Shown piece after piece: positions 1,276-60,169 of a DNA stretch of 64,000 bases. The stretch lies in the NCBI RefSeq assembly GCF_965240435.1, contig NZ_CBDEKO010000003.1; one strand, given 5' to 3'. Under the pieces are notes generated by a model that had not been told where the DNA came from, made no database searches, and saw only the letters and a program-made list of their open reading frames with translations. The first letter of the stretch is position 1. Each line of letters starts with the position of its first letter. Origin of the DNA: Moorena producens (GTDB lineage Bacteria; Cyanobacteriota; Cyanobacteriia; Cyanobacteriales; Coleofasciculaceae). The translations under genes were made by a program, and so were the position numbers.

Positions 1276-2376
1276 TTACCTCCGAGATGAATGTATGGCT
1301 TCAAAAAATGCTTTAACGCCAGCAGCAGGACCATCGGGATGATCCATAATGCCAGTTCCAGCATTAAGAATAACCTCTTGTCCGTAATCTCCTACAACCT
1401 TAGGCACAATCCCGGCATGAATGCCAGCGGAGGGGATAGGAAATACATTACGCGATCGCAAACTATCTCGAATTCGCTTTTCCTCCTCTGGGTCAAAGGG
1501 TAAACTACCATAATGGGCGGGATATAGCACCGCATCTGCCCCACCATGAGCCATCAGGGTTCCCAACACCACTGAGTAAGCCATCCCGTGGTTAGGGGCT
1601 CCACAGAGTGCTCCTGCTAAGGCCGGATGGGCAAAAATCGGTACATTAATCTCTGGATCAGCAGCTAGGGCTTCTAGGACAGAGAAACCGTAGGTCAAGA
1701 CATTCAGCAGCAGGGCATTTGCACCTTCTTTAACCAAGGTATGAGCTTTCTCAAGCAATTTGTCAGCCGAACCAGTTACATTAACGGCATAGAGTACGGT
1801 GCGCCCAGTTTGCTGTTTTATTTCATCGAGTACCTTACGGCAGACTTCTAGACGTTTCAGGGTTGGTGCTATCTCCAAATCCCCCAGAATCTCATCATCT
1901 TTAATAATGTCAAGTCCAGCTCCAGCAACCTCTTGTAAAATTTTCCCATGGTCTTCCGCTGAGAGTCCCAACGCTGGCTTAAAAATTGCCATAATCAGGG
2001 GACGGTCAACTACTCCTAGTCTTTCCCGAATCCCGGTAATTCCGAATTTGGGATGCCTACCGTAGTGTTCTGGCAAGCGCACTGCCATGACTTTAGCTGG
2101 TCCTGCCATGGAGTATTTACCAAAAATCATGGTTAGTAGAGTAGGGATATCGTTTTCCACATTAGCTTCAGGAAAACGGATGGTAGCCAAACCAGAACCA
2201 TCAGGGTTAATGACACCTTGAACAACAGTACCAAGATGGGAGCGAAACACATTTTCGAGATGGGCAAAACGAGCATTCCAGGTGCCTGCGGTTTGCCCAA
2301 CAGCAATCACTTTCGCTTGTTTTTCGACATCAACACCGCGAGGAAAGCGGTAGTCAACTTCAATGGACATATTCAA
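1276..2376 (-). CDS. mtnW: RuBisCO-like protein (form IV RLP) / 2,3-diketo-5-methylthiopentyl-1-phosphate enolase
   Basis: 366 aa with the RuBisCO large-subunit core motif GAGLDIIKDDE (compare GGLDFTKDDE). It lacks a RuBisCO small-subunit partner and sits in the mtn cluster. It is intact. Confidence 0.8.
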   Translation of the reverse strand: MNMSIEVDYRFPRGVDVEKQAKVIAVGQTAGTWNARFAHLENVFRSHLGTVVQGVINPDGSGLATIRFPEANVENDIPTLLTMIFGKYSMAGPAKVMAVRLPEHYGRHPKFGITGIRERLGVVDRPLIMAIFKPALGLSAEDHGKILQEVAGAGLDIIKDDEILGDLEIAPTLKRLEVCRKVLDEIKQQTGRTVLYAVNVTGSADKLLEKAHTLVKEGANALLLNVLTYGFSVLEALAADPEINVPIFAHPALAGALCGAPNHGMAYSVVLGTLMAHGGADAVLYPAHYGSLPFDPEEEKRIRDSLRSRNVFPIPSAGIHAGIVPKVVGDYGQEVILNAGTGIMDHPDGPAAGVKAFFEAIHSSRR

Positions 2377-5481: not shown

Positions 5482-5737
5482 CACAAGGCGATTTGGGCAA
5501 TCACCTAGGTAAATACAATGGTGAATACAATAGCCTCTAGCTATTAATCATCCTTAACAGGATACAGCAACAGGACAGTGTAACTAAGCACTGTCCTGTA
5601 TTATTTTGAGATTAAATCTTAAACAAGCATAACGATATAATTATTTCTGTTAAAAATTCCATAAGCTAATTTAAATAATAAGTCAGGGGATCCTATAATC
5701 CGACTGATTTTATTTGTGATAGTATAATCAAACCAAA

Positions 5738-5818
5738 GCTAGGGGTGCCTGAGCAACCAGGCTGAGATTACACCCTTAGAACCTGAGTCCGGTTAATACC
5801 GGCGGAGGGAAGCTGTGA
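5738..5818 (+). promoter_or_regulatory. TPP (thiamine pyrophosphate) riboswitch, THI element
   Basis: AGGGGTGCCTGAGCAACCAGGCTGAGATTACACCCTTAGAACCTGAGTCCGGTTAATACCGGCGGAGGGAAG carries the THI-box hallmarks (GGGGTGCC, CTGAGA, ACCTGA-CCGG-TAATACC). It sits directly 5' of thiC. A TATAAT lies at 5723-5728. Confidence 0.85.
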
Positions 5819-7207
<1,389 letters not shown>

Positions 7208-33076: not shown

Positions 33077-33556
33077 TCAATTAATCGGTATCCACTGGGA
33101 AAACGTAGCCCCTTGACCACAATAGTTATTTTCCTCATCAATGAGATTCCAGACGATAACATCTGAAATCTGGAACCGTTTACCAGTGCTAGAAATGCGG
33201 ACACCTTGATAGTTGCTAATATAGCCCTGGCTTGTCACTTGGTTAAGCAGGCGTAAGCGCTCCTCCCTTTCCATTGGCTCAGCTGAATATTTCGAAGGCA
33301 TCTGAGTCAATTGGTTCCAATCCATTTCCCACAATTCTAAACCTTTCCGATTGCCATAGTTGTAAATGGGGTCTGATTCAGTGTTGTGAGAGAAGACGGC
33401 AAAGGGCGCTTCAAATAGTGCCTGTGCAATTTCGATAGGTGAGCCACTAGTATCGATTAGAGAACGCCCTGTCCAATGATGAAAGCTATTGATTAGACGT
33501 TGGCTCTGGCGAATTACTGCGTCTTGTTGCCAAGGAAATTGGATCTCAGTATTCAT
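33077..33556 (-). CDS. PAS-like / MEKHLA-like small sensor domain protein (tentative)
   Basis: 159 aa, called from overall impression only. It sits directly downstream of the tnpB-only IS. Confidence 0.3.
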   Translation of the reverse strand: MNTEIQFPWQQDAVIRQSQRLINSFHHWTGRSLIDTSGSPIEIAQALFEAPFAVFSHNTESDPIYNYGNRKGLELWEMDWNQLTQMPSKYSAEPMEREERLRLLNQVTSQGYISNYQGVRISSTGKRFQISDVIVWNLIDEENNYCGQGATFSQWIPIN

Positions 33557-33559
33557 CAG

Positions 33560-35160
33560 TTTATTATTGTGTACAGATTTATCACGCTGATGGAACTATA
33601 GTAATCGTGACGCTCCTACACTCTCCTAACGGGTGAGTGTAGGCTTCTAGCACTCCTTAGAGCTACTAGAACTTGCTTCAAGGTACTATTAGTTAGAGAA
33701 CTATCAACAACAGGATTCCCTCTACGCCGTTTTATAGTGGGGAACACGCCCAGCCCCACTCGTTTTAGGTTGATTGCGGCATTGATATCGCGATCGACCA
33801 TCAGCATTTCTTGCTCATCCCAATACTCGCGGATAGAGCAGTCAGTAAATACAAACTCGTCTCGATAGCTCAACAGTTGAGAGGTATAGACAGGGTTACA
33901 CTTTTTCGTTACTGCTCCAGCTTTTCCAGCTATGTAGGCCAGTATCTCAAAGAACTGTCCAAACCCTGCATCCGACCAAGACTTGTTTAATCCCGATTTT
34001 GCGGACTGTCCATTAGGCAAATATCCACCATTAGTATCTGGCTTGGGTTTATTTCGTTTCTTTAAACCAGAAAGGTTCAAATTTTCATAATAGAAAACTT
34101 TTTTTCCGGTTCTAACCAGGAGATGAGCTGTTTTATAGGCATGATCCTTTCGGCTCCTAGCGATCCGTTGATGTATTCTCCCTTCACGCGATTGCAGCTT
34201 CCTCCGAGCTTTACTCCCTTTTTTTCTGGCATTCTTTTTGGTTTCTACCTTTTTGATAACAGCCTGATTTTTGCGGTAAGACTTAAGTGAGGGTAGCTTA
34301 GTATTTTCAGATGTCGCCAGATAATCATCTCCGTACAGGACTGCATCCAATCCCATGGTATTATTCCAAGTAGGAGTAACACTTTCTGGTTTAAAAGTTG
34401 GGACTGTAGGATCCTCTAAACATAAGGTCGTGTACCAACCATCGGCTTTTTTGGTTATTAGGATATTTTTGAGTTTAAACCCGTCAGGTAACGGACGATG
34501 GAGTCGGACTTTAACCCACCCTTTGAGCTTTGTTATCTTCAGCCATATCCATTTATTCTCGATTCTGGCTACAGTAAAAGAGCCTTTACCTTCTATTTTT
34601 AAAGTTCTGTATCTAGCTTGATTTTTGAATCGAGGTTTTCCGCTACGAGTACCCGTTTTATCGCCCTTGATGAATCGATTGAAAGCTAGGTCTGCTCTTT
34701 TACATACGTCCTGTAAAGTATTTGCCGGAACTCGGGTAAAGTCCAGCAATTCCCATGAGTGGACAACTGTTACCAAATCTTTTTTCCAGATTGGCAGAAG
34801 CTTTTTTTGACTAAAGTAACTGGGATTATCTCTAAGCTCTGGGAGGTAAGTAATCAACGGACAAGAATTAACACCAGTACGGTTTTCATTCCACCACCGC
34901 CAGCGATCGCCTAACTGCCAGTTATACCAGTAACGACAAATTCGTAGCCAATCGTTTAGTTGTAATTTTTGTTGAGTAGTTGGATCAGCTCGGTATTGGT
35001 AGTTGAGCAGTATAACAATCACCTCTTGGCTTTTATTGCGCTTTCATATATATAGATAATAACAATCTTTCCGAAAAGTTTCAGCATCTGTGTTTACTCC
35101 CATAAAAAGCTTTTATGATTTACTTATGCCCGCGTTCCAGCTGAACTCCTGCAACTGCTT
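33560..35160 (-). mobile_element. IS200/IS605-family non-autonomous element (tnpB only, no tnpA)
   Basis: A single TnpB ORF wedged between the CHAT gene stop (35163) and the start of the 159-aa gene (33556). A hairpin CCTACACTC-tcctaacgg-GTGAGTGTAGG sits at the tnpB stop, which is a typical omega-RNA / right-end position. Confidence 0.65.
33616..35022 (-). CDS. tnpB: TnpB (IS200/IS605 OrfB, RuvC-like RNA-guided nuclease family)
   Basis: 468 aa. RuvC-I (GLDAVLY), RuvC-II (YYENLN) and RuvC-III (DRDINAAINL) are present. The zinc-ribbon position reads TSQLLSYRDEFVFTDCSIREY, so the canonical CxxC...CxxC is lost. Confidence 0.85.
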   Translation of the reverse strand: MIVILLNYQYRADPTTQQKLQLNDWLRICRYWYNWQLGDRWRWWNENRTGVNSCPLITYLPELRDNPSYFSQKKLLPIWKKDLVTVVHSWELLDFTRVPANTLQDVCKRADLAFNRFIKGDKTGTRSGKPRFKNQARYRTLKIEGKGSFTVARIENKWIWLKITKLKGWVKVRLHRPLPDGFKLKNILITKKADGWYTTLCLEDPTVPTFKPESVTPTWNNTMGLDAVLYGDDYLATSENTKLPSLKSYRKNQAVIKKVETKKNARKKGSKARRKLQSREGRIHQRIARSRKDHAYKTAHLLVRTGKKVFYYENLNLSGLKKRNKPKPDTNGGYLPNGQSAKSGLNKSWSDAGFGQFFEILAYIAGKAGAVTKKCNPVYTSQLLSYRDEFVFTDCSIREYWDEQEMLMVDRDINAAINLKRVGLGVFPTIKRRRGNPVVDSSLTNSTLKQVLVALRSARSLHSPVRRV

Positions 35161-35162
35161 GA

Positions 35163-38100
35163 TTACTCCGCTTCCCCAATCAGGGTAAAAGCTGCCCATT
35201 CCACTGGATTTGGGTACTGTTTAAGAGTCGTAAGCATCGCTTGACGCAGAGCAACTGCTTTGTCAGGTGTTTGTTGTAGCTGGCGATAGAATTCAATCAT
35301 CAGGTCAGCTGTGGAGTCATCAGGTACTTTCCAGAGGGAAACAACCACACTAGGTACACCAGCAGCAACTAAAGAACGGGATAATCCAATCACGCCATCA
35401 CTGGTAACTCTACCTCTACCAGTGTTGCAAGCGCTTAAAACTACTAACTCAGCACTAAGCTTGAGGTCGAGTATTTCACTAGCGCTGAGAAAACCTTTAT
35501 CTGTTTTAGTCGGAGCAAGGGCGATCGCTCCTGGTAAACCTAATCCCTGGAAGTCATTGAGTAAGCCGTGAGTAGCTAGATGTATGATCTTTGCCTTTGA
35601 CATTTGCTCAACTACTGCTGCCTTAGTGGCTTGATTGCCAATCAGGGCTTGAGTATTGAACATCTCAGCGATCGCTAGCGCTTCTGTTTCTGTTCCAGGA
35701 AGAGGGGGCAAACCTTGAGGCATAGTGGGATTACCAATTACTAGCATCTCTTCTCCTGAAACCTGTTGCCGTTGCTGGTTAGTTAAATCCAGCACCTGAA
35801 TCGAGGGAGCAGTGAGCATAGTATGTTTTTCGATCAGGTATTGACCAGAAGCGTCTTGTAGTGCTGGGAAAGGTACTAGAAACAAGGATTCGTGGGGAAT
35901 AAAGGTTACACGAGCTTCGGGATTAGTAGGTAAGAGTTCGGCAATTGGTTCAATGAGCAGTTGATGCAGTTGTTTTAATCGTTCAGTTTGACCAGCTCTC
36001 TCTGTTTTAGTCAATCTTTCACTGGGAACTAAATCAACTAGGGATGGGCTTCTTCTGAAAAAAATCGATTTACGAGTGATACCAACCAATTTGTCAAGAG
36101 ATGTATCCAGATTAGTTAAATCAACCTGACGAAAAGCGATTTTACCTGTAGGTTTAATTACCCAAATGTAAAGCTCTTTGTCTTGAAGTTGCCGCACACC
36201 TTGGGCTTCGACAACTTCTTTGATAATCGAGTATAAAACTATTGTCGAGTTTTGTTTTTCAGTAATTTTTTTAATTTGTTTGATCTTCGGAGGAGCAATC
36301 GGTTTGTGATTTTTGAGGTTTGGTTCAGACTCTGATAAACCTCTCGCTAATAGTTCAACAAAGGCTCTTGCTCGTCCTCTTTCAGTAATTTCTAGGGCTT
36401 GATTGAATTGTTTTCGTTCTACTAAATACTCTTGTAAAGTGCTATAAGTTGTTTCATGAGTTTCAAATATTGATACTCTCTCAAGGTCATTGCTGCCTAA
36501 GTTTGACCGCAAAGACTCCCAAATTTCAATGGCAGCAAAGAGAGCCTCATTTGCTTCTTGAGGATTTCCGGCTTGATAGAGAGCATCACCTAAGTTACTC
36601 AAAGCTCGTCCCTTGGCGTGGCGATCACCTAGTTGCTTGGCAATTTCTAAACTCTGGCGTTGGTAGTTTACTGCTTGGTTGTAGTCTTCTAGAGCATGGT
36701 AAATTATTCCCAAATTTTCTAGGGCTACTAACTCTCCATAGTTATCTTGCAGTTTTTGTGCGATCGCTAAACTCTGCTGAGAGTATTCAATTGCTTGGTT
36801 ATAGTCGGTCAGAGTATAGTACACCAAGCTCAAATTAGATAATGCTCTTGCCTTTCCAGGTAGGTTATCGGATGTTTTAGCGATCGCTAAACTTTTTTCT
36901 TTGTATTCAAGTGCTTTGGTATATTCCTTCTTAGCGTAGTAAGCTAATCCGATATTGCTTACTATATTCCTTTCCCACTCAGACTCATTGGTTGAGTTTA
37001 ATAGTTCTAGACCCTGTTTATAGTATTCAATAGCTTTGTCATAGTTTCCTATTGCGCCATAAGCGGCTCCTAAGCCACTTAATGCTTGCCTTTTTCCTAT
37101 TAAGTTTTTCTCTGATTTGGCAATAGTAAAATGCTGTTTATGATAGTCTAGAGCTTTGCCATAGTCTCCCAAGATATAGTGAGTAACTCCGAGGTTATGT
37201 AGAGCTTTTACTTCTCGCAATTGATCGCCAAATTTTCGTGCAAATTCTAAGTTTTTATGATAGCATTCGGCAGCTTGAGTGTAATCTTTAGCAGCCACTT
37301 GTAAGGAAAATCCTTGAGAATTTATGAGTAATTGTTCTTCTTCCAGACACTCTGTAATTTCCAGTACCAGGATTGTCAGTCGTTCTAGTTCAATTGCTTG
37401 AGTCTTGTTTGACCTCTTGCTCTGATTGACCGCCAAATCTGATCGATTAACCTGGGTTGGCAAGGCAGAGTTTTGATGGTCTGACCTTGGTGATGGTGTT
37501 GTTGGGGAAGAATTGGGAGGATTTCCATAATTTACAGGTGCAGGAATTACTCTTATTGGAGGTTCAGGTGGTAGTAGTGGTGGCTCTAGATCTAAAAAAG
37601 GTGGAGCTTCAGGTGCTAGTAAGACTTGAGATTCTGGACTTTGTATAGTGATATTCTGGTTTCTGAAACCTAGAATGGAAGTAATAGTAGAAGTAGCAGT
37701 AACATTTTCTGCATTGATGTCACGACCAGCAACAAGAGTAACGTTGCCACTCTCACCATTACTACTAGCAGCATTTATATCCCCAGCATTAATACTTCCC
37801 TCGGTAGCGAATAATTGAACCTCTCCTCCTTTACCTTCCACAGAGGAAGAATCAACTACCCCAGCACTAGTATCAATACTTCCTCTATCGCTAACGGCAG
37901 TAATATCACCACCATTACCATTATTACTGGAAGCATTGAGACTCCCGGTAGTGATATTACCTTCTGCTCTCAGGTCAATATTTCCACTATCACCACTTAC
38001 CGCCGTTGAATCCAGTGTGCCACTACTAGTATCAATTTCTCCTTGTCTACTATTGAGGAAAATTCTGCCACCATCGGAAGTAATTGATGCTGTCCGAAGA

Positions 38101-39065
38101 TTACCTTCTGCTTCAATAACTACTTGCTTACCAGCACTGATATCCTGCACTACTACATCACCATCTTCGACCTGGATACCAGAACCGATCAGTTGTACTG
38201 TACCCTCACGATTTACCTCAATTCCTGTAGCATCACCGCCGCCAACTGTCAGCAGTTCGGGTAGGGAAAGGGGAGTGAAGGGAACAGTGGCAGAGGGGGA
38301 AACTTCTAAACTGAGAATATTACCTCGCTGGGAAATACGGAGTAAATTTTCTCCAGGCACAGCCTCAATAGTAACTTGACCACCAGGGGCAGTAAGAGTG
38401 CCATTACTGATCACAGTACCACCTACTAAGGTTAAATTCTGCCCCTCTTTAACTGCTAAATCAGCTAAATTGATGATCCCACCTGGTTGGGAAACAGCAA
38501 AATCAAAAGTATTGGGCTTGCCTACCAAGGAAGCATAGTCATTGCTACCAATGGCATTAAACCATCCGCCATCAAAACCAATACCAGTAGCAGTGGTGGC
38601 GGTAAAAGAAGCAGGTAAATCGATGCTGGCACCAGCACCAAAGACAATCCCAGCGGGGTTAATCAGGAATAAATTCGAATTACCCCCTGTAACCTGGATT
38701 AAGCCATTAATTACAGAAGCATCACCACCAGTGACTCGCCCTAGGATATTTTCGATATTAGGATTAGAGAGAAAGTTGGCAATCTGACCTTCACTCAGAC
38801 CAAATTTCTGGAAGCTATGAAAGAGATTCGCACCATCTCCCGACAGCTGACCGCCATCAATGTTGAATTGGTTACCCTCAGGGTTGACAACAGTACCAGT
38901 ACCATCGTTGGCTTCAACTATCGGTTGCGCCTGCACAGGGGTTGGCAACGGGCAATAGGTCAAATAGGTTGAAGAACAAACAAGCAGGAAAAACTTAGTA
39001 GCTGCTGATCTTCCCTGACCAATGATCTGGCTCAACAGGTGAAGACAGCTCAATATTAGTCTCAT
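35163..39065 (-). CDS. Secreted filamentous-hemagglutinin-N-terminal (TPS) domain, Gly/Ser-rich beta-helical repeats, Pro-rich linker, TPR repeats and C-terminal CHAT protease domain
   Basis: 1300 aa. Signal peptide, then TPS domain ([12 protein letters not shown]...LFHSF..F...[34 protein letters not shown]). Linker [13 protein letters not shown]. About 8 TPR units (AxxYYxQxLxIAK-type). CHAT His/Cys dyad ([10 protein letters not shown] ... [11 protein letters not shown]). Confidence 0.8.
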
Positions 39066-39640: not shown

Positions 39641-41716
39641 TTAACTTGGATTACCTAGCAGTTTATGTCGGAGCTGCTTAATGCGATCGCGTAACTTTGC
39701 TGCGGTTTCAAATTCCAAGGTCTTTGCTGCTTCCTTCATCTGTTCTTCTAACTGATTAATCAACTCCGGAATCTTCTCCAAAGGTACATCATCCACCTGT
39801 TCAAACACCGCTTCCAACTGTTGGGAATTCAACCGTCGGGAGACATCCAAAAATGTTAAAATCGGGTTGTTGGCGGTTTTGCGAATCGGCTGTGGTATAA
39901 TGTTATTTTTGATGTTATACTCAATTTGAATCTTACGACGGCGATTAGTCTCATCAATCGCTTTTCTCATGCTTTTTGTAAAGGTATCAGCATACATAAT
40001 GGCTTGCCCTCGGACATGACGTGCTGCTCTGCCTATAGTTTGAATAAGCGATCGCTCTGCCCTGAGGAACCCTTCCTTATCGGCATCCAAAATTGCTACC
40101 AGAGAGACTTCCGGCAAATCCAACCCTTCTCGCAATAAGTTAACTCCAACCAATACATCAAATTCACCCTGGCGCAACGCCTGCAAGATTTCAATCCGTT
40201 CAATAGAGTTAATATCCGAGTGCAAGTAGCTTATCCGAATATCCCGTTCTTGCAGATACTCTGTCAAATCCTCAGCCATGCGCTTGGTTAAGGTTGTTAC
40301 CAGCACCCTTTCCTGACAATCCACCCGCTGCTTAATCTCAGCCAACAAATCATCTACTTGACCTGCTGTAGGACGGACAAAGATTTCTGGGTCAAGCACT
40401 CCGGTAGGACGAATGATCTGTTCCACGACTCGTTCTTGAGATTGTTCCATCTCCCAATCCCCAGGAGTAGCAGAGACAAAAATACACTGATTCACCTTTG
40501 CCCAGAATTCCTCTGCCTTCAGGGGTCGATTATCTGCTGCACTAGGTAAGCGAAAGCCATGGTCAATCAACACTTGCTTTCGAGCGCGATCGCCATTGTA
40601 CATTCCCCGAATTTGCGGCACCGTAACATGGGATTCATCCACTACCAAAAGCCAATCTTCGGGAAAATAATCAATCAAACACTCTGGTGGTTCCCCAAGC
40701 TGGCGTCCAGCCAAGTGACGAGAATAGTTTTCCACACCATTGCAGTAACCAATTTCGAGCAACATTTCCAAATCATAGCGGGTACGCTGTTCCAACCGTT
40801 GCGCTTCTAGCAAGTTCCCAGCTTGCTCCAATTGAGCCAAACGTTCCTCAAGCTCTACCTTAATAGCATTACAAGCTTCTTCTAACCGTTCATCGGGAGT
40901 AACAAAGTGACGAGCAGGGTAAATATTTACTCCCTCTACACTTTGGAAAATTCCACCGGTAACTGGGTCAACGTAGTGAATAGCATCAATTTCATCTCCG
41001 AAGAATTCTACCCGAATAATTCGGTCTTCATAAGCCGGGCCAATTTCTAACACATCCCCCTTCACCCGGAACCGTCCGCGTCCCAATTCTAAATCATTCC
41101 GGGAATACTGTACTGAGACTAAATCCCGTAAGAGTTGGCGTTGGTCAACTTCGGTATTCACCCGCAGAGGAATCGAAGCTTTTAAATATTCTGAGGGGAT
41201 ACCCAAGCCATAGATACAGCTAATGGAAGCCACCACAATTACATCCCGCCGTTCAAAAAGCGATCGCGTAGCTGAGTGCCTCAGCATATCAATTTCATCA
41301 TTAATTGACGCGGTTTTCTCGATGTAGGTGTCAGTGACCGGGATATAAGCTTCCGGCTGGTAGTAATCATAGTAGGAAATGAAATACTCCACCGCGTTAT
41401 GGGGAAAAAACCCCCGCAATTCGTTACATAACTGGGCAGCCAAGGTTTTGTTGTGGGCAAGTACTAGGGTAGGTTTGCCAACTTTTTCAATTACCGATGC
41501 CACGGAGAAAGTTTTGCCTGTTCCCGTAGCACCCAGTAGAGTTTGGATACGGTTGCCAGCCTTGAGGTAAGTGGTGAGTTGGGAAATAGCTTGGGGTTGA
41601 TCCCCTGTTGGTTGAAAAGGGGCTTCGAGGTTAAATAGCATTTTAGACGCTTCTGGCACAGTTAAAAAAAAATCCGTAAAAATACTATCTATAATTTCAT
41701 CATAATTTTTGTACAT
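39641..41716 (-). CDS. uvrB: Excinuclease ABC subunit B
   Basis: 691 aa with Walker A GATGTGKT, helicase motifs, and the C-terminal UVR domain ([17 protein letters not shown]). Confidence 0.95.
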
Positions 41717-46439: not shown

Positions 46440-48050
46440 TCACTTCGTTGATCAATCCAGTCATGAAGCTTCCACCACCTGGCTATCGCCGTTCGCGTAG
46501 CGTGGCGATAGCCAGGTGGTGGTGTCTTATACTAACTTATAACTACCCCTAGTCCATAAGTCACACAAGCAAGCCCAGCTTCTAGGCGGTCGTCGAGATC
46601 TTTTGCTGGAACGACCCTCACTGTCATTTCTGCGAGTGAGTTTAAACACACCTCTAGCACCGATGTTGTAAGCGCCGTTTAAGTCTGCATTAAACCGCTT
46701 ACCTGAAGGGAAGGTTGCCAAAGAGTATTTTTTAGAATTTCTCTTAACCGTACCAGAGCCATCAAAAGCCAATTTTGAAGTATAAGCCGCAACGACTTCT
46801 ATCACTTTTCCACCCAATTCAGCCCATTTCATTTCTGTGAAGTCGCGGATTTTTGCCTTGAGCCATCCGTGGAATCTTTGTTTTAAATTAGACCGCTTTC
46901 GTCCACCTTTTGGCTTCCACCCTTTAAGATTCTCGAATACAATGGCTTCCGAGTTGAACTTTTCAGCAATTTCAACAATCCCCTTGGAAACAATATGGCC
47001 AATTTGGTTATTGATTCTTTGGCATTTTTGATAAGTTTTGGAGCAAAAACCTTTATGTAGTTTTCCTCCTTTTCCCATCGTCTTCGATGCTCTTGCTGAT
47101 ACGGACTTTAGTCGTTTGTCCCTGCGGTCTATGTCTCTTCCAAGATGAATAAAATCACGATGGATTACAGTGCCACTATGGGTTACAACTGCTACGGTAG
47201 CGGTAGTATTAATCCCTAAATCTACCGCAGTTATGTTAGCCTCTGGCTTGCGTTTTTCTGGTTTGCAAGTAAACGGAACAGACAGATGACAGTACCTATC
47301 GTTAAAAATCAACGAAGGGGACATCATTTTGTTTGTAGCTATCTTATGACGCTCTCTTAGTCCAGTTATTTGAACTGTAGTCCAAACCCAATCCTTGCCG
47401 TTAAAAACTTTGATTTCGACTTGATCAAAGCCATGTAGTTTATAGCATTGACCCTTGTACAGAGCTGGATAGCAGCCAGTATCAGCGTTTAACCTTGGTG
47501 GCTTGCTATCTTTTCTTTTTCGGACACCAGACTGCCATTCACGGTATCGAGTCACATAACTACTAACCTGCCCAGCGGCAAAGGCGATTGCTGATCGGCG
47601 ATAATAACTGGGAAATTTATAAAAAGCTTTATTGAATTGAGGGTATTTAATTAAGGCTCGCTTGGCCGTCTTATGCATCAGACGCTCGACAGCAGGAGTT
47701 AACTGATCTGCTGTTAAACAACCTAACTCAGACCAATGAGTGTAAATCACACCAAGCAAGTACCGACAAGCGCGGCGATAAACCTTAACCGTTTCCCCAA
47801 ATAGTAGTTTTTGCTCGGAAGTTGGGTTAAGTCGCCACTTGTCTGTTCTTATGACCTTGGTCGGTGTTTTCACGCTTTCTAATAAACTCGTTTATAGTTA
47901 ATATTTTAGCTCACAAAAGGTAATACGGCAATCAAGTAATTAATGTTCCAGGTTTTAAAGTTGGTATCAGCGTGGAGTAACCCCCACCTGAACCTTCGCG
48001 CAGCGTGGCCGTAGGCCAGGTGGGGGAATGCGTCTCACGGCTTGTTCAAG
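46440..48050 (-). mobile_element. IS200/IS605-family non-autonomous element (tnpB only), with subterminal hairpins at both ends
   Basis: Right-end hairpin CACCACCTGGCTATCGCC-gttcgcgtagcgt-GGCGATAGCCAGGTGGTG at 46462-46512. Left-end hairpin CCCCCACCTG...CAGGTGGGGG with a similar TTCGCGCAGCGTGGC loop at 47978-48030. Confidence 0.7.
46527..47873 (-). CDS. tnpB: TnpB (IS200/IS605 OrfB family)
   Basis: 448 aa. RuvC-I AVDLGI, RuvC-II IVFENL, RuvC-III NADLNGAYNIG. The zinc-finger position (YTSKLAFDGSGTVKRN...SLATFPSGKRF) has no cysteines. Confidence 0.85.
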   Translation of the reverse strand: MKTPTKVIRTDKWRLNPTSEQKLLFGETVKVYRRACRYLLGVIYTHWSELGCLTADQLTPAVERLMHKTAKRALIKYPQFNKAFYKFPSYYRRSAIAFAAGQVSSYVTRYREWQSGVRKRKDSKPPRLNADTGCYPALYKGQCYKLHGFDQVEIKVFNGKDWVWTTVQITGLRERHKIATNKMMSPSLIFNDRYCHLSVPFTCKPEKRKPEANITAVDLGINTTATVAVVTHSGTVIHRDFIHLGRDIDRRDKRLKSVSARASKTMGKGGKLHKGFCSKTYQKCQRINNQIGHIVSKGIVEIAEKFNSEAIVFENLKGWKPKGGRKRSNLKQRFHGWLKAKIRDFTEMKWAELGGKVIEVVAAYTSKLAFDGSGTVKRNSKKYSLATFPSGKRFNADLNGAYNIGARGVFKLTRRNDSEGRSSKRSRRPPRSWACLCDLWTRGSYKLV

Positions 48051-54270: not shown

Positions 54271-57200
54271 TCAACCCTTGCTACCACAATATCTAGGAAT
54301 ATACCAATTACTCTTAGGTGTAACATTATTCGGTTCAGCCGTCAGGATAATCGTACCATCCTCCCCAACAGTCCAACCCTGAGCTTCCACAATTTTCTTC
54401 GGACGAGAAGGAGTAGGAGTAGAGGCAGTCCGGCGTTTCCCTCTCATCGGCAAGTAACTGACCTCAGGGGTAGGAGTAGACGTAGCTTCTTCGATGTTCT
54501 CTTCTTCAGTATCAAGGGTGATCCAATCTACCAGTACAGACTGTTGATTGATTGGGTCTAGGGGACTCGGGGGTAAGCCACCTCGTCCAGTAACAATGAA
54601 TTCACCCAGTTCATCTACAGCTACTTTTCCACTCCTGGGACAGTTGGCAACAATTAATGCTGAAGGGTCAACTACTGATGTTGGTAAGTTTTCAGGATCC
54701 TGTGCTGAGTTGGTAATATCCCTGGTCACAGGCCCAGATTGACCGCTGCTAAAGCTAATAGCTGCTATTTCACTATCATTATTCTCAAAAGCAAGGGATT
54801 CGATTATCTTTCCAGATGAGTCTGTAAACGCACTGGTATCTTCCAGTACTTTCATATTGAATAAGCCCTCGAGGGTGATGTCGATTCTTCCACCATCCCC
54901 TTTCTGAGCATTAGCAAATATATCGCTACCTTTCTCATCATTAGTTAAAGGCAGCGCTAGTAATACTCCACCAGAAATATCGATATTTCCACCATCGACC
55001 CCATTTCCTGTAGCGCTAGCCAAAATTAGGCTGTTGTTATCGAGTATGATCACTCCTGGTACATTGATATCGATAGTTGCTGCATCTTTGTCTTCGGTTT
55101 TTTGTCCAGTAGCAGCTATAAGTTGGCCGTTGTCTAGGGTTAGAGAATCAGCCTTAATGGTCAGTTTGCCAGCTACTCCTAGCTCGCTCTCACCCACATC
55201 GGTTTCTGGAAAACCATTCTGAGTTAATGGTACAGCGCTTACTGATATTTTGGCTCCATCTTCCACAGTTAGGTTTTCGGTTGTTACTGTCAAGTCTCCT
55301 GCCTCGCTACCTCCGCTGGCTGCCACCGAAATCCTGCTGTCAGGGTCATCATCAAAGATCACAAGGACTTCATTGGATATGTTCAGTTTGATAACGTTTA
55401 TTCGTTCTTCTATGTCTTGGATTTTTGTCTCTATTTCTTCTATGTCTTCTTCCAGTTTTTTGATATTTGCTTCCGTTAGTTGATTCTGGGTTTCCTGGAG
55501 TTCATCCAGCTTTTTGATTAGTTTACGGTTTTCTCTGTTTAGTTTATTATTTTCGTTATCCAGTTGCCGCTTTTGTGATTCCAGAATATTATTGATAATA
55601 ACAATACGTTGCGAGGAAGAGTCGGGAGCACTACCACTAACAATAACTTGCTCTGAAGCATTAATCGTAATGGTGCCAGCATTGCCAGGATCTCCACCCT
55701 CATCATTTAAGGGTTTAGTCTTAATTTCTCCCCCTTCCGTGATGCCTACTATCTCGACGGGATTACTATTTAAGGCAGTAGAAATAATTTTCCCCCCTTC
55801 AGTGACCTTTACTTCCTTAGCATTGATTGTGATTTCACCGCCTTGAAATTTACCGATGCTGCGAGTGCTTATAAAGGAATCATTGGATACGGTTAATTTA
55901 CCAGTTGTGATATTTATCTTTCCTCCCCGAGGCTCGTTTTCAGCAACACTCTCAGCTCCTAGTCGAGTTTCGGTAACTATGCGATTGGCGTTTTTTCCAT
56001 AAATTTCCACAAAATCGGTAGCATTGACTGTAATATTACCTGCTGGGAGTTTGCCCTGAGTAAAAGCTTCTAATTTACCTCCATTTTTAAGGGATAGAGA
56101 GCGGGCTGTAATGGTAATGTTGCCAACCCCTCCTGGGGTGTTTTTCGCTGTTTCTGGGTTTCCCGCTCCAGCATTTACTACAGCTTGGATGTCGCTGTTG
56201 TTAAGCTCAATCTTATCCTTAGCCATTATCTCAATATTTCCAGGATTTCCCTTAGTGTTCGGCCTAGCCTCAGTACTGATAATGCTTCTGTTGCTTAAGG
56301 AAAGTGAACCAGCTTCAATTATTATGTCGTTACCATTACCTGTAGATCCCTTTTGGGATTGTGCTTCAATTTGGGCTCGGTCTGTCATGATGAAGTCTCC
56401 TTCCACTATGATTGTGATCTTGCCCGCCTTTCCATCTCCTTCTGTATTAGTATTTATACCATCAGAACCTGATCTATTAGGTCCAATCATCGTCAGTGAC
56501 CCAACACGGATGTCTATCGGACCGCCGTCACCGGTAGCTCCTGCTTCAGTCTTAGCCGTAATTTCGACTAGACCTCTCTTAGATTTAGGATTGCTCGGAT
56601 TACGAGAATCAAGCAATAAGGAATCAGCTTGGACCTCAATACCCCCGCTCGATCCTTGAGAGCCTTTTTTAGTGATACTCTCAATTTTGCTGCCGAATTT
56701 AACCTCAACTGCTCCCCCAGCCAAGATCGTAACTTTTCCCCCGGTTCCCTTACCGCTATTTTGGCTCTTAATTCTGCTGTTATCAGCCAGGGTAACATTG
56801 CCATTGACCTTTAATGAAATATTCCCGACACTGCCATTTGTTTTGGAATTACGTTGTTCTGTTTTAATGGTACCCTGCCTTTTCAGGAGTACATCCCCAG
56901 TCACATCGATGGTAATGCTTCCGCTATCACCATCTCCCCCTGTTATTGCCGAAATTCCCGGGTTTTGTCTCCTAGATTCGATCACTAGGGAGCCAGTAGT
57001 AATTTGAATGCTTCCTCCTGGTCCACCTTTTAGTTCACCTTTTTTGTCATCAGTTGTTAAGGTAAAGATTCCATGCTGATTTCCCTGATTAGAAGCAATA
57101 ATCGAAACTGAGTCATCAGCGGTGATGATAATATCACCCCCTTTCTGACCATTTCCCTTAGTTGTGGTCAAGATTCCCTGTTCTCTTCGAGCCGTCTCTA

Positions 57201-58281
57201 CTGTCAACGAGCCAGTATCGATAGTAATTTTTCCGCCTTCTCCACCTTCTTGCTCTGTTGTAGTAAAGATTCCCTGGCGTTTTTCTCTAGCAGTAGACTT
57301 AATTAATACTGAGTTATCAGCACTTATAATAATATCACCACTTTGATGACCATTATTCTCAGTTTTAGTAAAAATTCCCCGGTCTTTCTTATTTTCCGAG
57401 TTTTCTACTTCCAAAGACTCAGCAATAATCCTAATCTCACCACCATCAACCTTGCTATCTTTTGCTACGAAAGTTTCTATAGCGCTATTGGTGATTAAAA
57501 CATTCCCTTTCTTGACAGCATCAGGAAAATCTAAACCCAGCTTGTTACCGTCTCTAGTCAATGCTACTTGTCCTGGTGCGCCCAATCCGGCTAACAGAAT
57601 ATTCCCACCTTGATTGGTGCTAATCTTACTATCTTTAACCTCAACATCACCACCAAGTAACAATAGGTTATTAACCGCCAGCTTCTCTAACTTGGCTTTA
57701 CTAGTGTTAATATCACCCGGAATTTGATTAAAGAAAAACACATTAGGATTAACTCTCAACAATGGCGACGGAGGCTCAGGATTAGAGGCACTAAACACTC
57801 CTTGATTCCCAAACCCAATCCCATCAGCAGTAGTGCCCACAAATGAACCGGATACATCCAGCTTGGCTTTATCCCCAAAGAAAATCCCATTGGGATTAAT
57901 CAAGAACAAATTTGCTCCACCATCGACACCCAAGGTTCCTAAAATATTGGAGGGATTCGCACCAGTTACCCGAGAAATAATATTTTCAATCCCAGCTGGA
58001 TTAGCAAAATAAACTCTTTGTCCATCTGTAACATTAAATTCTAAAAAGCTATGGAACAAGTTGATATCTCGGATTGCTCCTCCTTTAATTAAATCAACAA
58101 TTTTCCCATTTATCTCACCAGAGCCCAGGTCTAGCAAAGACCTTTCGGCTGGTGGTAAAGTAGTATCAGGAGTAATCTGAGCATGAGCTTGGTTTATTGG
58201 AAATGCGTACGCTCCACTAATCCCTAAACATAGCGCTAAACCTAACTGAGTGTTATACCGTTTCAAGACATCTAATGCCAT
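54271..58281 (-). CDS. Filamentous-hemagglutinin-family exoprotein (TPS N-terminal secretion domain plus a long beta-helical repeat shaft with an internal coiled-coil segment)
   Basis: 1336 aa. Signal peptide (AYAFPINQAHAQ). TPS domain (INLFHSF..FNV...NIISRVTGANPSNILGTLGVDGGANLFLINPNGIFFG). G/N/T-rich repeats. A ~90-aa charged coiled coil (QKRQLDNENNKLNRENRKLIKKLDELQE...). Cysteine-containing C-terminal region. Confidence 0.85.
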   Translation of the reverse strand: MALDVLKRYNTQLGLALCLGISGAYAFPINQAHAQITPDTTLPPAERSLLDLGSGEINGKIVDLIKGGAIRDINLFHSFLEFNVTDGQRVYFANPAGIENIISRVTGANPSNILGTLGVDGGANLFLINPNGIFFGDKAKLDVSGSFVGTTADGIGFGNQGVFSASNPEPPSPLLRVNPNVFFFNQIPGDINTSKAKLEKLAVNNLLLLGGDVEVKDSKISTNQGGNILLAGLGAPGQVALTRDGNKLGLDFPDAVKKGNVLITNSAIETFVAKDSKVDGGEIRIIAESLEVENSENKKDRGIFTKTENNGHQSGDIIISADNSVLIKSTAREKRQGIFTTTEQEGGEGGKITIDTGSLTVETARREQGILTTTKGNGQKGGDIIITADDSVSIIASNQGNQHGIFTLTTDDKKGELKGGPGGSIQITTGSLVIESRRQNPGISAITGGDGDSGSITIDVTGDVLLKRQGTIKTEQRNSKTNGSVGNISLKVNGNVTLADNSRIKSQNSGKGTGGKVTILAGGAVEVKFGSKIESITKKGSQGSSGGIEVQADSLLLDSRNPSNPKSKRGLVEITAKTEAGATGDGGPIDIRVGSLTMIGPNRSGSDGINTNTEGDGKAGKITIIVEGDFIMTDRAQIEAQSQKGSTGNGNDIIIEAGSLSLSNRSIISTEARPNTKGNPGNIEIMAKDKIELNNSDIQAVVNAGAGNPETAKNTPGGVGNITITARSLSLKNGGKLEAFTQGKLPAGNITVNATDFVEIYGKNANRIVTETRLGAESVAENEPRGGKINITTGKLTVSNDSFISTRSIGKFQGGEITINAKEVKVTEGGKIISTALNSNPVEIVGITEGGEIKTKPLNDEGGDPGNAGTITINASEQVIVSGSAPDSSSQRIVIINNILESQKRQLDNENNKLNRENRKLIKKLDELQETQNQLTEANIKKLEEDIEEIETKIQDIEERINVIKLNISNEVLVIFDDDPDSRISVAASGGSEAGDLTVTTENLTVEDGAKISVSAVPLTQNGFPETDVGESELGVAGKLTIKADSLTLDNGQLIAATGQKTEDKDAATIDINVPGVIILDNNSLILASATGNGVDGGNIDISGGVLLALPLTNDEKGSDIFANAQKGDGGRIDITLEGLFNMKVLEDTSAFTDSSGKIIESLAFENNDSEIAAISFSSGQSGPVTRDITNSAQDPENLPTSVVDPSALIVANCPRSGKVAVDELGEFIVTGRGGLPPSPLDPINQQSVLVDWITLDTEEENIEEATSTPTPEVSYLPMRGKRRTASTPTPSRPKKIVEAQGWTVGEDGTIILTAEPNNVTPKSNWYIPRYCGSKG

Positions 58282-58842: not shown

Positions 58843-59610
58843 ATGATGACTCGTAATTTACTATTAAGTTTGGGAGTGTCAGCACTAGGACTAGCTTTTA
58901 CTCCCTTTGGAGCCAGTGCGTTTACGATTGTTGGTGAGCTCAGTGAAACAGAGTTCCAGAACCTAGCTCCCGAGATATCCCTGTCTGCCGAGAGTCGTTT
59001 TGGATCTGGAACAATAGGAGGAAACACCTTCGAGCTAGATATCCACAAGGTTAACGCTAGTGGTGGTTTTACTAACTTAGATCAGAAAGAATTTAATTGG
59101 GTCAGTGGTGAAGCCGTTGATTTCTTACTGGAGTTCGATGGTATTTCTCAACTTACCTATACCGTTGGTGAGGTGGTTCTTTCGTCTACAGTTACAGAGG
59201 ATAACTTCTCAGATTTGTTTCTACGGACTAGTGCTCGTAAGGATAACAGCAGCATTGTACTGAGCAACTTGATGTTAACCGATAGTGCGATGTCTGCTAG
59301 TCTTCCTGACGCATCCAATGTTTGTAGTAATCCTAATGATTGCGGTTTTTTTGATGCACAGTATTTACACATCAGTAACGTTTTAGGTGCTTTCAGCCTC
59401 ACTGGTCAATCAACTATGACCTGGTCAGAAGAGAATCGGCCCACACAATCTCGACTAGCGTATCAGGTTAAATTAGTGGCTGGTGAGCCCGGAGACAAGC
59501 CCCCTGTTGATGTACCAGAGCCAGCTACGATGTCTGTGTTTTCCCTAGGTGTTATTGGTTTGGTTCTAACTGGTAGTCGTCGCCGCCATCAGCTTGGAGT
59601 TCAGCAATAA
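58843..59610 (+). CDS. PEP-CTERM sorting-domain protein (exosortase substrate)
   Basis: Signal peptide, then C-terminal VPEPATMSVFSLGVIGLVLTGSRRRHQ (PEP motif, TM helix, Arg cluster). Confidence 0.75.
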   Translation: MMTRNLLLSLGVSALGLAFTPFGASAFTIVGELSETEFQNLAPEISLSAESRFGSGTIGGNTFELDIHKVNASGGFTNLDQKEFNWVSGEAVDFLLEFDGISQLTYTVGEVVLSSTVTEDNFSDLFLRTSARKDNSSIVLSNLMLTDSAMSASLPDASNVCSNPNDCGFFDAQYLHISNVLGAFSLTGQSTMTWSEENRPTQSRLAYQVKLVAGEPGDKPPVDVPEPATMSVFSLGVIGLVLTGSRRRHQLGVQQ

Positions 59611-60169
59611 TTTTTTCGATCTTTTTCTTAGCATGATCTTGGCTGTACAACCTAGGAGAGAATGACTTGACAATAGCAATAAAATCCTGCATCAACTCGT
59701 CTTTAGAATTATCCACTTGGTTGACAATTTCTAACTGAATACCTAAACGAGACAGCAGAATCTCCAAGTAATTAATGCCGAATCTACCCAGGCTGTCTTT
59801 ATGCTCTACTAGTAAAATGTCGTAGCCATCAGAATTCAGAAGAGTCGCTAATTGTTGACGATTATCGTTGAGTCCACTTCCTACTTCTTTGATAATTTTG
59901 ACAATCGTGTAACCTTTAGCGATCGCATACTGTTGAAGACGTTGGACTTGAAGCTCAACCTCTGACTTATGCTCAGCAGAGGAGACTCGCCCATAGATAG
60001 CAACTCGTTTGGTGTTTGATGGCTGGGTTTTCTGTTGAGGGAAGTACTCAACGATCACTGAGCCACTTTCAGTTTGGAATGCTGGATGAGGCAACTTACC
60101 TGCCTTCCACCATCTCCAAGCGGTCTGGTAGCTTACTCCCATGTGTTTGGCATAGTCTTTGAGTCGCAT
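59552..60169 (-). CDS. tnpA: IS607-family serine recombinase transposase TnpA (MerR-like HTH plus resolvase catalytic domain), solo
   Basis: N-terminal HTH (YAKHMGVSYQTAWRWWKAG), then VAIYGRVSSAEHKSE with the catalytic Ser. No tnpB partner follows. Its 3' end overlaps the PEP-CTERM gene's 3' end by 59 nt. Confidence 0.75.
   Translation of the reverse strand: MRLKDYAKHMGVSYQTAWRWWKAGKLPHPAFQTESGSVIVEYFPQQKTQPSNTKRVAIYGRVSSAEHKSEVELQVQRLQQYAIAKGYTIVKIIKEVGSGLNDNRQQLATLLNSDGYDILLVEHKDSLGRFGINYLEILLSRLGIQLEIVNQVDNSKDELMQDFIAIVKSFSPRLYSQDHAKKKIEKIIAELQADGGDDYQLEPNQ

Follow-up and report, generated by a model that had tools for sequence, protein, structure and literature searches.

A 64,000-nucleotide stretch of Moorena producens DNA (the window) contains, at positions 35163..39065 on the minus strand, a gene whose product combines a two-partner secretion (TPS) domain, a beta-helix, a Pro-rich linker, a TPR region and a CHAT domain. 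The best explanation overall, to which a probability of roughly 0.7 can be assigned, is that the gene is intact and conserved and codes for a type Vb substrate whose passenger ends in a TPR-CHAT caspase-fold cysteine protease. The more general picture, in which a type Vb substrate with a TPR-CHAT passenger end represents a fused orphan of a wider cyanobacterial TPS/TPR-CHAT partnership, is considered very probable. The gene is one intact open reading frame (ORF) with an ATG start, encodes 1300 amino acids (aa) and corresponds to WP_424095450.1 from M. producens. The NCBI form of this protein, named 'CHAT domain-containing protein [Moorena producens]' and encoded on a 516-kb contig, has 1296 aa with a start four codons later and is 100% identical.

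The domain composition that the original prediction had read from the single 1300-aa ORF is borne out by Pfam searches, with E-values well outside the range of chance, by residue composition and by AlphaFold2 (AF2) models. The protein begins with a predicted N-terminal export signal (aa 1-46; 38928..39065, on the minus strand like all parts of the gene), which on a heuristic reading comprises a basic residue, a hydrophobic core and the site PVQA↓QP, with the family consensus AxA↓Q. It is followed by the TPS secretion domain (aa 54-291; 38193..38906). The assignment of the N-terminus to this domain type stands, with a match to Pfam PF05860 across aa 54-291 (E=4.6e-42, 145 bits against a cut-off of 33.5) and to NCBIfam TIGR01901 adhes_NPXG, the haemagglutinin N-terminal domain, at aa 82-159 (75.8 bits against a cut-off of 29.1). 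The residues of both TPS motifs, the NPNL-like motif and NPxG, are invariant in 34 aligned sequences and align with NPNGVLFG of EtpA, and the sequence alignment with EtpA spans aa 54-433 of the window protein, including the NPxG motif. Downstream of the TPS domain, a Gly/Ser/Asn-rich region with 14% Gly and 14% Ser is predicted to form a right-handed beta-helix stalk (aa 292-480; 37626..38192), and a Pro-rich tether with 26% Pro (aa 481-545; 37431..37625) is predicted to be disordered. In the AF2 model of aa 41-600, the TPS domain and the all-beta helix reach a pLDDT above 90, with disorder at aa ~479-559. The best PDB matches of this model in Foldseek are exclusively TpsA secretion domains, namely those of EtpA, HMW1, HxuA, FHA and HpmA, with a probability of 1.00.

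The C-terminal part consists of a TPR superhelix (aa 596-870; 36456..37280), a helical and beta-sheet connector (aa 871-1027; 35985..36455), which was delimited in the AF2 model and is 42% identical in relatives, and the CHAT caspase-fold cysteine protease domain (aa 1028-1298; 35172..35984). The TPR region is recognized by TPR_12, TPR_1 and related Pfam families at aa ~597-862; its presence had been predicted correctly, whereas the AF2 helices form about seven helix pairs, slightly fewer than the eight or so repeats originally counted. The CHAT domain matches PF12770 with E=9.9e-73 and 245 bits against a cut-off of 24, and its putative His/Cys dyad lies in HG and AC motifs. The AF2 model of aa 561-1300 (pLDDT 84.9, pTM 0.86) places the helix pairs before an alpha/beta CHAT domain. 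The dyad proposed in the original prediction is upheld by the alignment of 34 family members, in which the predicted catalytic residues His1166 (HLATHG; codon 35568..35570) and Cys1213 (LSACNTG; codon 35427..35429) are invariant; both codons were verified. The mature protein has just three Cys residues, catalytic Cys1213 among them.

The same architecture is found in many cyanobacteria. The domains TPS, TPR and CHAT are combined in 119 of the 120 best database matches, the lone exception being a partial sequence, and all organism-named matches among these 120 come from cyanobacteria, chiefly filamentous ones (Moorena, Microcoleus, Oscillatoria, Kamptonema, Trichocoleus, Coleofasciculus, Symploca, Phormidium and Leptolyngbya). 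Judged by sequence, the TPS-TPR-CHAT fusion is a large, already annotated cyanobacterial family and not a one-off, and the window gene is an ordinary member of it. Compared with 29 relatives from outside Moorena, identity amounts to 63% in the TPS domain, 26% in the beta-helix, 13% in the Pro-rich linker, 46% in the TPR region and 66% in the CHAT domain. The beta-helix is the most length-variable region, with relatives adding about 200 aa of repeats on average. As read from these alignments, the strongest constraint is at both ends of the protein, in TPS and CHAT, while stalk and tether appear free to vary in length. The invariant TPS motifs together with 63% identity of this domain across genera point to selection on transporter recognition. 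An HMMER search with the CHAT region returned 6,268 clusters (50% identity) at E<=1e-30. Among the closest 150, a TPS domain is present in 20 and, according to a crude heuristic, an N-terminus resembling a signal peptide in 92, so that most of the 150 are predicted to be exported; several of the remaining 38 resemble sequences with mis-called starts.

The original prediction had also stated that the window lacks a transporter gene, and three types of search agree with this. ShlB, POTRA_2 and Omp85 are absent from all 31 window ORFs of at least 150 aa (Pfam), phmmer searches with cyanobacterial and E. coli TpsB seeds against all window ORFs of at least 100 aa returned nothing, and tblastn with a Moorena TpsB against the window gave a best E-value of 0.47, with neither a TpsB gene nor a remnant of one in the 64 kb. 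An unlinked transporter is nevertheless not the anomaly that the original prediction had implied: TpsB exists in M. producens and M. bouillonii, and none of six fusion loci of relatives (Microcoleus, Kamptonema, Trichocoleus, Oscillatoria princeps, Phormidium ETS-05 and a JGI contig) has ShlB or POTRA_2 within 10 kb. A cyanobacterial TpsB was reached by a detour: the window TPS domain led to TPS genes on cyanobacterial plasmids, after which E. coli EtpB retrieved an annotated ShlB/FhaC/HecB gene on pNFSY04, a plasmid of Nostoc flagelliforme. The TpsB of pNFSY04 defines a cyanobacterial clade whose members from different orders share 70-90% identity, which agrees with the report that Hmw1B-type TpsBs occur in many cyanobacteria (Heinz & Lithgow 2014). 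This clade (e.g. loci L015-L033) is unusually conserved for TpsB and extends over Nostocales, Oscillatoriales and Leptolyngbya-like taxa, with several plasmid-borne copies; its conservation and the plasmid copies suggest that it is strongly constrained, has spread horizontally, or both.

Scanning species-representative genomes with the cyanobacterial TpsB yielded 80 loci. The TpsB at locus L069 from Moorena bouillonii PNG5-198 is a 605-aa ORF with ShlB, POTRA_2 and Omp85 domains. In M. producens, WP_424101828.1, a 'ShlB/FhaC/HecB family hemolysin secretion/activation protein' encoded on a 554-kb contig, is 98% identical to this protein and clusters with copies from many Moorena metagenome-assembled genomes (MAGs), the Moorena TpsBs being 96-98% identical. 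The TpsB searches thus found a transporter with ShlB and POTRA_2 domains in the species, in M. bouillonii and in Moorena MAGs; that TpsB and window gene belong to one M. producens assembly is suggested by WP_424101828.1 and WP_424095450.1 lying about 6,400 accession numbers apart, both of them new. The L069 locus of M. bouillonii also encodes a TPS-CHAT paralogue at a distance of 2 kb from the TpsB gene; over 271 aa, the TPS domain of this paralogue and that of the window protein share 54% identity. In Microcoleus sp. B3-D7, a TPS-TPR-CHAT protein (P0022) and a TpsB locus (L023) are found in the same strain on separate contigs. Some TpsBs are known to secrete more than one TpsA (published TPS review). 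From these sequence relations, the seemingly missing TpsB is best explained as a transporter that would be unlinked and shared, and the orphan tpsA gene of the window does not imply transporter-independent export. Directly upstream of the M. bouillonii TpsB gene and overlapping its start, L069 6105-9707 carries a DDE transposase gene and a 732-aa ORF without a Pfam match, possibly the remnant of a TpsA gene disrupted by an insertion sequence.

The fused gene has counterparts in which the same components are encoded separately. On pNFSY04, the Pfam-confirmed gene order is response regulator, CHASE2, DUF928, TPR-CHAT (divergent), TpsA (2288 aa) and TpsB. This arrangement recurs at many loci. A census of such modules was made with phmmer seeds on the 80 TpsB loci and counted in the 33 loci with at least 8 kb on both sides. 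The partners of TpsB in this set are TpsA (29/33), CHAT (22/33), DUF928 (16/33) and CHASE2 (10/33), and TpsA and CHAT are neighbouring genes at the plasmid loci L009, L010 and L011. Two modules do not contain an adjacent TpsA gene. L095, an ENA metagenome scaffold (1-21722), encodes TpsB, a response regulator, CHASE2, DUF928 and TPR-CHAT, with a TpsB that is 96.5% identical to the one from M. producens; L031 from Capilliphycus salinus likewise encodes a TpsB-CHAT module. These modules indicate that such TpsBs serve substrates encoded elsewhere. On L095, the module lies directly downstream of genes for a MacB/FtsX-HlyD-ABC exporter, a VKOR protein and PqqD/Asn-synthase-like (lasso-peptide-like) proteins.

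Fusions of TPS and CHAT occur in at least three forms, represented by the clade of the window protein, by Acaryochloris locus L013, where a fusion with a module-type CHAT is preceded by a DUF928 gene, and by the TPR-less Moorena paralogue at L069. These three forms with their divergent domains suggest more than one TPS-CHAT fusion event. Repeated adjacency together with fusion is standard evidence for a functional link, here between TPS systems and TPR-CHAT proteins. The window gene is probably an orphan, fused member of a TPS/TPR-CHAT partnership that would work outside the cytoplasm. No description of the link between TPS systems and TPR-CHAT came to light when the open-access literature was searched for CHAT in combination with two-partner secretion, TpsA/TpsB, haemagglutinin, DUF928 or POTRA/ShlB; in a preprint on Trichodesmium, proteins annotated as CHAT, haemagglutination-activity and TPR are mentioned in passing as enriched in one clade. 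The coupling of TPS and exported TPR-CHAT is widespread and apparently undescribed, and occurs both as separate genes, accompanied by DUF928 and CHASE2, and as fusions.

Several features of the split modules deserve mention in their own right. TpsAs encoded upstream of TpsB (L016-L092; e.g. L019 752-5302 and L024 6113-9985) share a strongly conserved tail of about 70 aa with the consensus 'F.ITG.GGLP.RPGDA...RPW[QK].GDPIVEP[QST]GVY[RK]L.NG.LVLSREC', followed by the stop within 0-3 residues; the fused window protein does not have this tail. The tail may act in retention or processing and may be a candidate substrate of the neighbouring TPR-CHAT. The DUF928 proteins of the modules (L014 4734-5516, L013 13859-14764, L095 15168-15890 and 18 further loci) have about 260 aa, a signal peptide and the N-terminal motif 'Y.P...PP...S..G..RGC.G...PLTVLAP...VG.T.S..PTFAWFVP', and their genes usually adjoin the TPR-CHAT gene directly. 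Speculatively, this adjacency recalls pairs of a protease and its dedicated substrate such as Csx29/Csx30. Genes for DUF1822 proteins also recur near the loci (L002 6711-9587 in Kamptonema; L010 23292-24209 on a Nostoc plasmid). The Kamptonema gene is paired with one for a 478-aa protein with a weak match to sigma-70 region 4 and is divergent from the TPS-TPR-CHAT gene; this pair could point to a transcriptional output. On plasmid pREB7 of Acaryochloris marina (L008 8054-15780), a DUF4347-annotated TPS protein, whose TPS domain is 59% identical to that of the window protein, is encoded divergently from an inverse-autotransporter beta-barrel gene, with NB-ARC and TIR genes nearby.

The compartment in which the CHAT domain would act can be approached through its unfused relatives. 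Every full-length split TPR-CHAT protein in the TpsB loci has a basic and hydrophobic N-terminal signal or anchor, e.g. MPSRYRKFRVRRFLVVIFFSSLTFFLWL...ATAQS and MLSAKLFAALLFALALPAGT...AIAQP, according to the heuristic, and N-terminal signals are also present in two TPR-CHAT paralogues on either side of the Trichocoleus fusion gene, both of them members of the window protein's own CHAT clade. Among solved CHAT structures, the nearest in sequence is the periplasmic TPR-CHAT of the Myxococcus xanthus anti-sigma factor DdvA (E=2e-5), a domain for which signal-induced proteolysis has been proposed (DdvA literature). The export signals of the unfused relatives, the small number of Cys residues and DdvA as the closest solved CHAT indicate that the CHAT lineage of the window protein presumably works outside the cytoplasm. 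As the unfused relatives have a Sec signal only, they argue for action in the periplasm. For the likely partners of the TPR-CHAT proteins, namely DUF928 and the CHASE2 sensor, a location in the envelope is expected.

In the proposed mechanism, the protein would be exported to the periplasm by Sec via its predicted signal peptide, and the TPS domain would then dock on a TpsB of the ShlB/POTRA_2 type encoded elsewhere, which is present in the species. The beta-helix, whose fold is predicted, would thread outwards and fold into a short surface stalk. The Pro-rich tether would join this stalk to the TPR-CHAT part, which by its predicted fold may act as a regulated, substrate-specific protease outside the cytoplasm with the dyad His1166/Cys1213. 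The favoured topology, given about even odds, would have the TPR-CHAT part held on the periplasmic side and tethered through the pore by the Pro-rich segment, with processing or signalling in response to events at the surface filament. In large TpsAs, C-terminal regions are often retained: the prodomain of FhaB is periplasmic, and the C-terminal half of CdiA stays in the periplasm until receptor binding. It is because of this precedent, the Sec-only signals of the unfused relatives and the expected envelope location of the likely partners DUF928 and CHASE2 that the periplasm-tethered topology is favoured.

A number of points weigh against this reading. The TPS and CHAT domains of the window protein have diverged from the TpsB-linked module versions, with 60-120 bits compared with 270-330 bits within the fusion clade, and the CHAT domain is about 25% identical to the module CHATs. 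Owing to this divergence, it is from sequence relations that we infer the use of a TpsB of the WP_424101828.1 type by the window protein. The tie between this TpsB and the window gene is suggested by the species name and the close RefSeq accession numbers. The module partners DUF928, CHASE2 and DUF1822 are absent from the 64-kb window. The signal peptides of the window protein and its relatives were called by a crude hydrophobicity heuristic, and secretion, location and activity are, for the whole family, predictions from sequence and structural models. No conserved candidate cleavage motif occurs in the linker among the relatives; with its 13% identity and variable length, the Pro-rich linker lends no support to a conserved autocleavage site.

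An extracellular protease had been proposed originally and is a possible reading, not the sole one. According to this view, the passenger would be exported across the outer membrane in its entirety through TpsB, TPR-CHAT included, and would act as an extracellular or surface protease on targets such as proteins of the sheath, the surface or neighbouring organisms. The TpsA-type architecture with a terminal CHAT domain and the few Cys residues of the mature protein are in line with such a route, and TpsA passengers with enzymatic C-terminal domains are known (TPS review). However, the Sec-only signals of the nearest CHAT relatives deliver these to the periplasm, and where the module is split, TpsB does not have the protease as its substrate. 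By analogy with FhaB and CdiA, the alpha-helical TPR-CHAT part of about 80 kDa could moreover fold in the periplasm and stall export. Complete export is therefore held to be plausible with clearly less than even confidence.

The periplasm-tethered topology can be extended into a tentative and rather unlikely, but far-reaching, proposal. Exported TPR-CHATs would be integral to a type Vb module for secretion and signalling that is specific to cyanobacteria and comprises the CHASE2 sensor, DUF928, TPR-CHAT, TpsA and TpsB; the window protein would be a self-contained fused version of it. A beta-helical filament at the surface would be connected through the TpsB pore to a periplasmic caspase-like protease. 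In multicellular cyanobacteria, this protease would respond to surface events (contact, damage, or attack by phages or grazers) with proteolytic signalling or with decisions on cell fate. If true, this would be an envelope counterpart of the separase/securin or Csx29/Csx30 logic.

TPR-CHAT proteases are known from chromosome segregation (separase), from CRISPR immunity (Csx29) and from one periplasmic anti-sigma factor (DdvA), and two-partner secretion is known mainly for proteobacterial adhesins, cytolysins and contact-dependent inhibition (CDI) toxins. With many CHATs fused to or encoded beside TPS systems, filamentous cyanobacteria appear to harbour a large uncharacterised meeting point of both. 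If the link is functional, type Vb secretion would gain a new class of cargo or partner, and caspase-like proteases would be placed in a new compartment under a new regulatory logic. The module is also present, in some cases on plasmids, in Nostoc, Leptolyngbya and Acaryochloris, which offer tractable test cases.

The possibility that the TPS domain is vestigial is regarded as improbable. The protein would then be a Sec-exported periplasmic TPR-CHAT with an inert beta-helical N-terminal extension and with no TpsB involved, as might be read from the lack of an adjacent TpsB in the window and in the six fusion loci of relatives and from the fact that a signal peptide alone suffices for most members of the CHAT clade. 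This is difficult to reconcile with a TPS domain that is conserved to the same degree as CHAT (63% and 66%) and retains invariant NPNL-like and NPxG motifs across genera, with a TpsB that is present in the genus and the species, and with the M. bouillonii TPS-CHAT paralogue located 2 kb from a TpsB gene.

Still less probable is a CDI-like polymorphic toxin, in which CHAT would be delivered into neighbouring cells on contact while kin are protected by an immunity protein. The combination of TPS, beta-helix and a C-terminal enzymatic domain does resemble CdiA, and caspase-like toxin domains occur in polymorphic toxin systems, but Tox-Caspase is listed there with T2SS, T6SS, T7SS and PVC delivery and not with T5SS (Zhang et al. 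2012). In the window protein's family, the CHAT domain is the most conserved region (66%) on a variable body and not a variable tip. What follows the CHAT gene in the window is a TnpB transposon gene, and the downstream genes of relatives differ; a conserved immunity-type gene is missing there, and CdiB is not adjacent. The contact-dependent effector implied by the original prediction is thus unlikely, and assignment to the CdiA-type toxin class was rejected in view of the conserved C-terminus and the lack of a downstream immunity gene and an adjacent cdiB.

A cytoplasmic, CRISPR- or defence-associated protease of the Csx29 type can be practically dismissed, as the protein scores 18.9 bits against a cut-off of 300 with NCBIfam NF041237, is 13-14% identical to Csx29 and bears a predicted signal peptide, as no cas, gRAMP/Cas7-11 or Csx30/31 families were found by Pfam among the window ORFs of at least 150 aa, and as PADLOC defence families were unmatched beyond generic TPR. 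Of the likeness to Csx29 drawn originally, the fold-level analogy to Csx29 and separase holds, while membership in the Csx29 family is refuted by the score far below the cut-off and the lack of cas genes. An analogy in function would require a partner guided by RNA, of which the window has none.

Compared with known systems, the window protein resembles the TpsA exoproteins (FhaB/FHA, HMW1, EtpA, HxuA, ShlA/HpmA and CdiA) in its predicted signal peptide, its TPS domain with NPNL-like and NPxG motifs and its predicted right-handed beta-helix. It differs from them in a passenger that ends in TPR-CHAT, and no TpsA so described was found in the searched open-access literature; it further differs in the unlinked tpsB, the very short beta-helix and the filamentous cyanobacterial host. 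The split module (CHASE2/DUF928/TPR-CHAT/TpsA/TpsB; pNFSY04, WP_100903417.1 and neighbours) has the same two components in the same phylum. There, the TPS protein and TPR-CHAT are separate and encoded beside tpsB, and TpsA ends in the conserved motif '...GDPIVEPQGVYRLPNGKLVLSREC', whereas in the window both are one polypeptide encoded far from tpsB. DdvA from M. xanthus (PDB 8ROT) is a dimeric inner-membrane protein with a transmembrane helix as anchor and a cytoplasmic zinc anti-sigma domain, and lacks TPS, beta-helix and a three-helix motif. A DdvA-type anti-sigma factor was rejected for the window protein, whose N-terminus consists of a predicted signal peptide, TPS and beta-helix and not of a zinc anti-sigma domain with a single transmembrane helix. 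Csx29 of the type III-E CRISPR craspase is cytoplasmic, bound to Cas7-11 and cleaves Csx30. Separase, with 12-13% identity to the window protein, is eukaryotic, nuclear or cytoplasmic and regulated by securin. The secreted clan-CD proteases gingipains and clostripain use the T9SS or Sec route, lack TPRs and fall into another family.

The CHAT gene is flanked upstream by uvrB (39641-41716) and downstream by an IS605-family tnpB gene (33616-35022), followed by a MEKHLA-domain gene (33077-33556; Pfam). A scan for promoters and terminators in the CHAT gene region gave results at or below chance, no tRNAs were found in the window, and the sole Rfam match of the window is a TPP riboswitch distant from the CHAT gene. 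This riboswitch (5731-5827, plus strand, 71.7 bits) lies directly 5' of thiC (5834-7207), an ordinary arrangement. Mobile elements punctuate the region: two IS605-family TnpB genes (OrfB / Cas12f-like TNB; 33616-35022 and 46527-47873) and one serine resolvase gene (59552-60169) are all encoded on the minus strand. Upstream of the MEKHLA gene, seven genes for sensor histidine or hybrid kinases form a run at 11785-32336, all on the minus strand, with PAS, HAMP, CHASE, MASE3 and Cache-like sensor domains, together with a phosphate-binding-protein-like gene on the same strand. A RuBisCO large-subunit-like protein of 366 aa (1276-2376, minus strand), with a partial match to the catalytic domain, is encoded beside a HAD hydrolase and is probably not a carboxylase but a RuBisCO-like protein.

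A second orphan TPS-domain protein, to which the original prediction had rightly drawn attention at 54271, is encoded at 54271-58281 on the minus strand. It has 1336 aa, a TPS domain (E=5e-42), a long beta-helix and an internal coiled-coil stretch, and a TpsB gene is absent nearby in this case as well. Its C-terminus, '...IVEAQGWTVGEDGTIILTAEP...YC', is a variant of the C-terminal motif common to cyanobacterial TpsAs.

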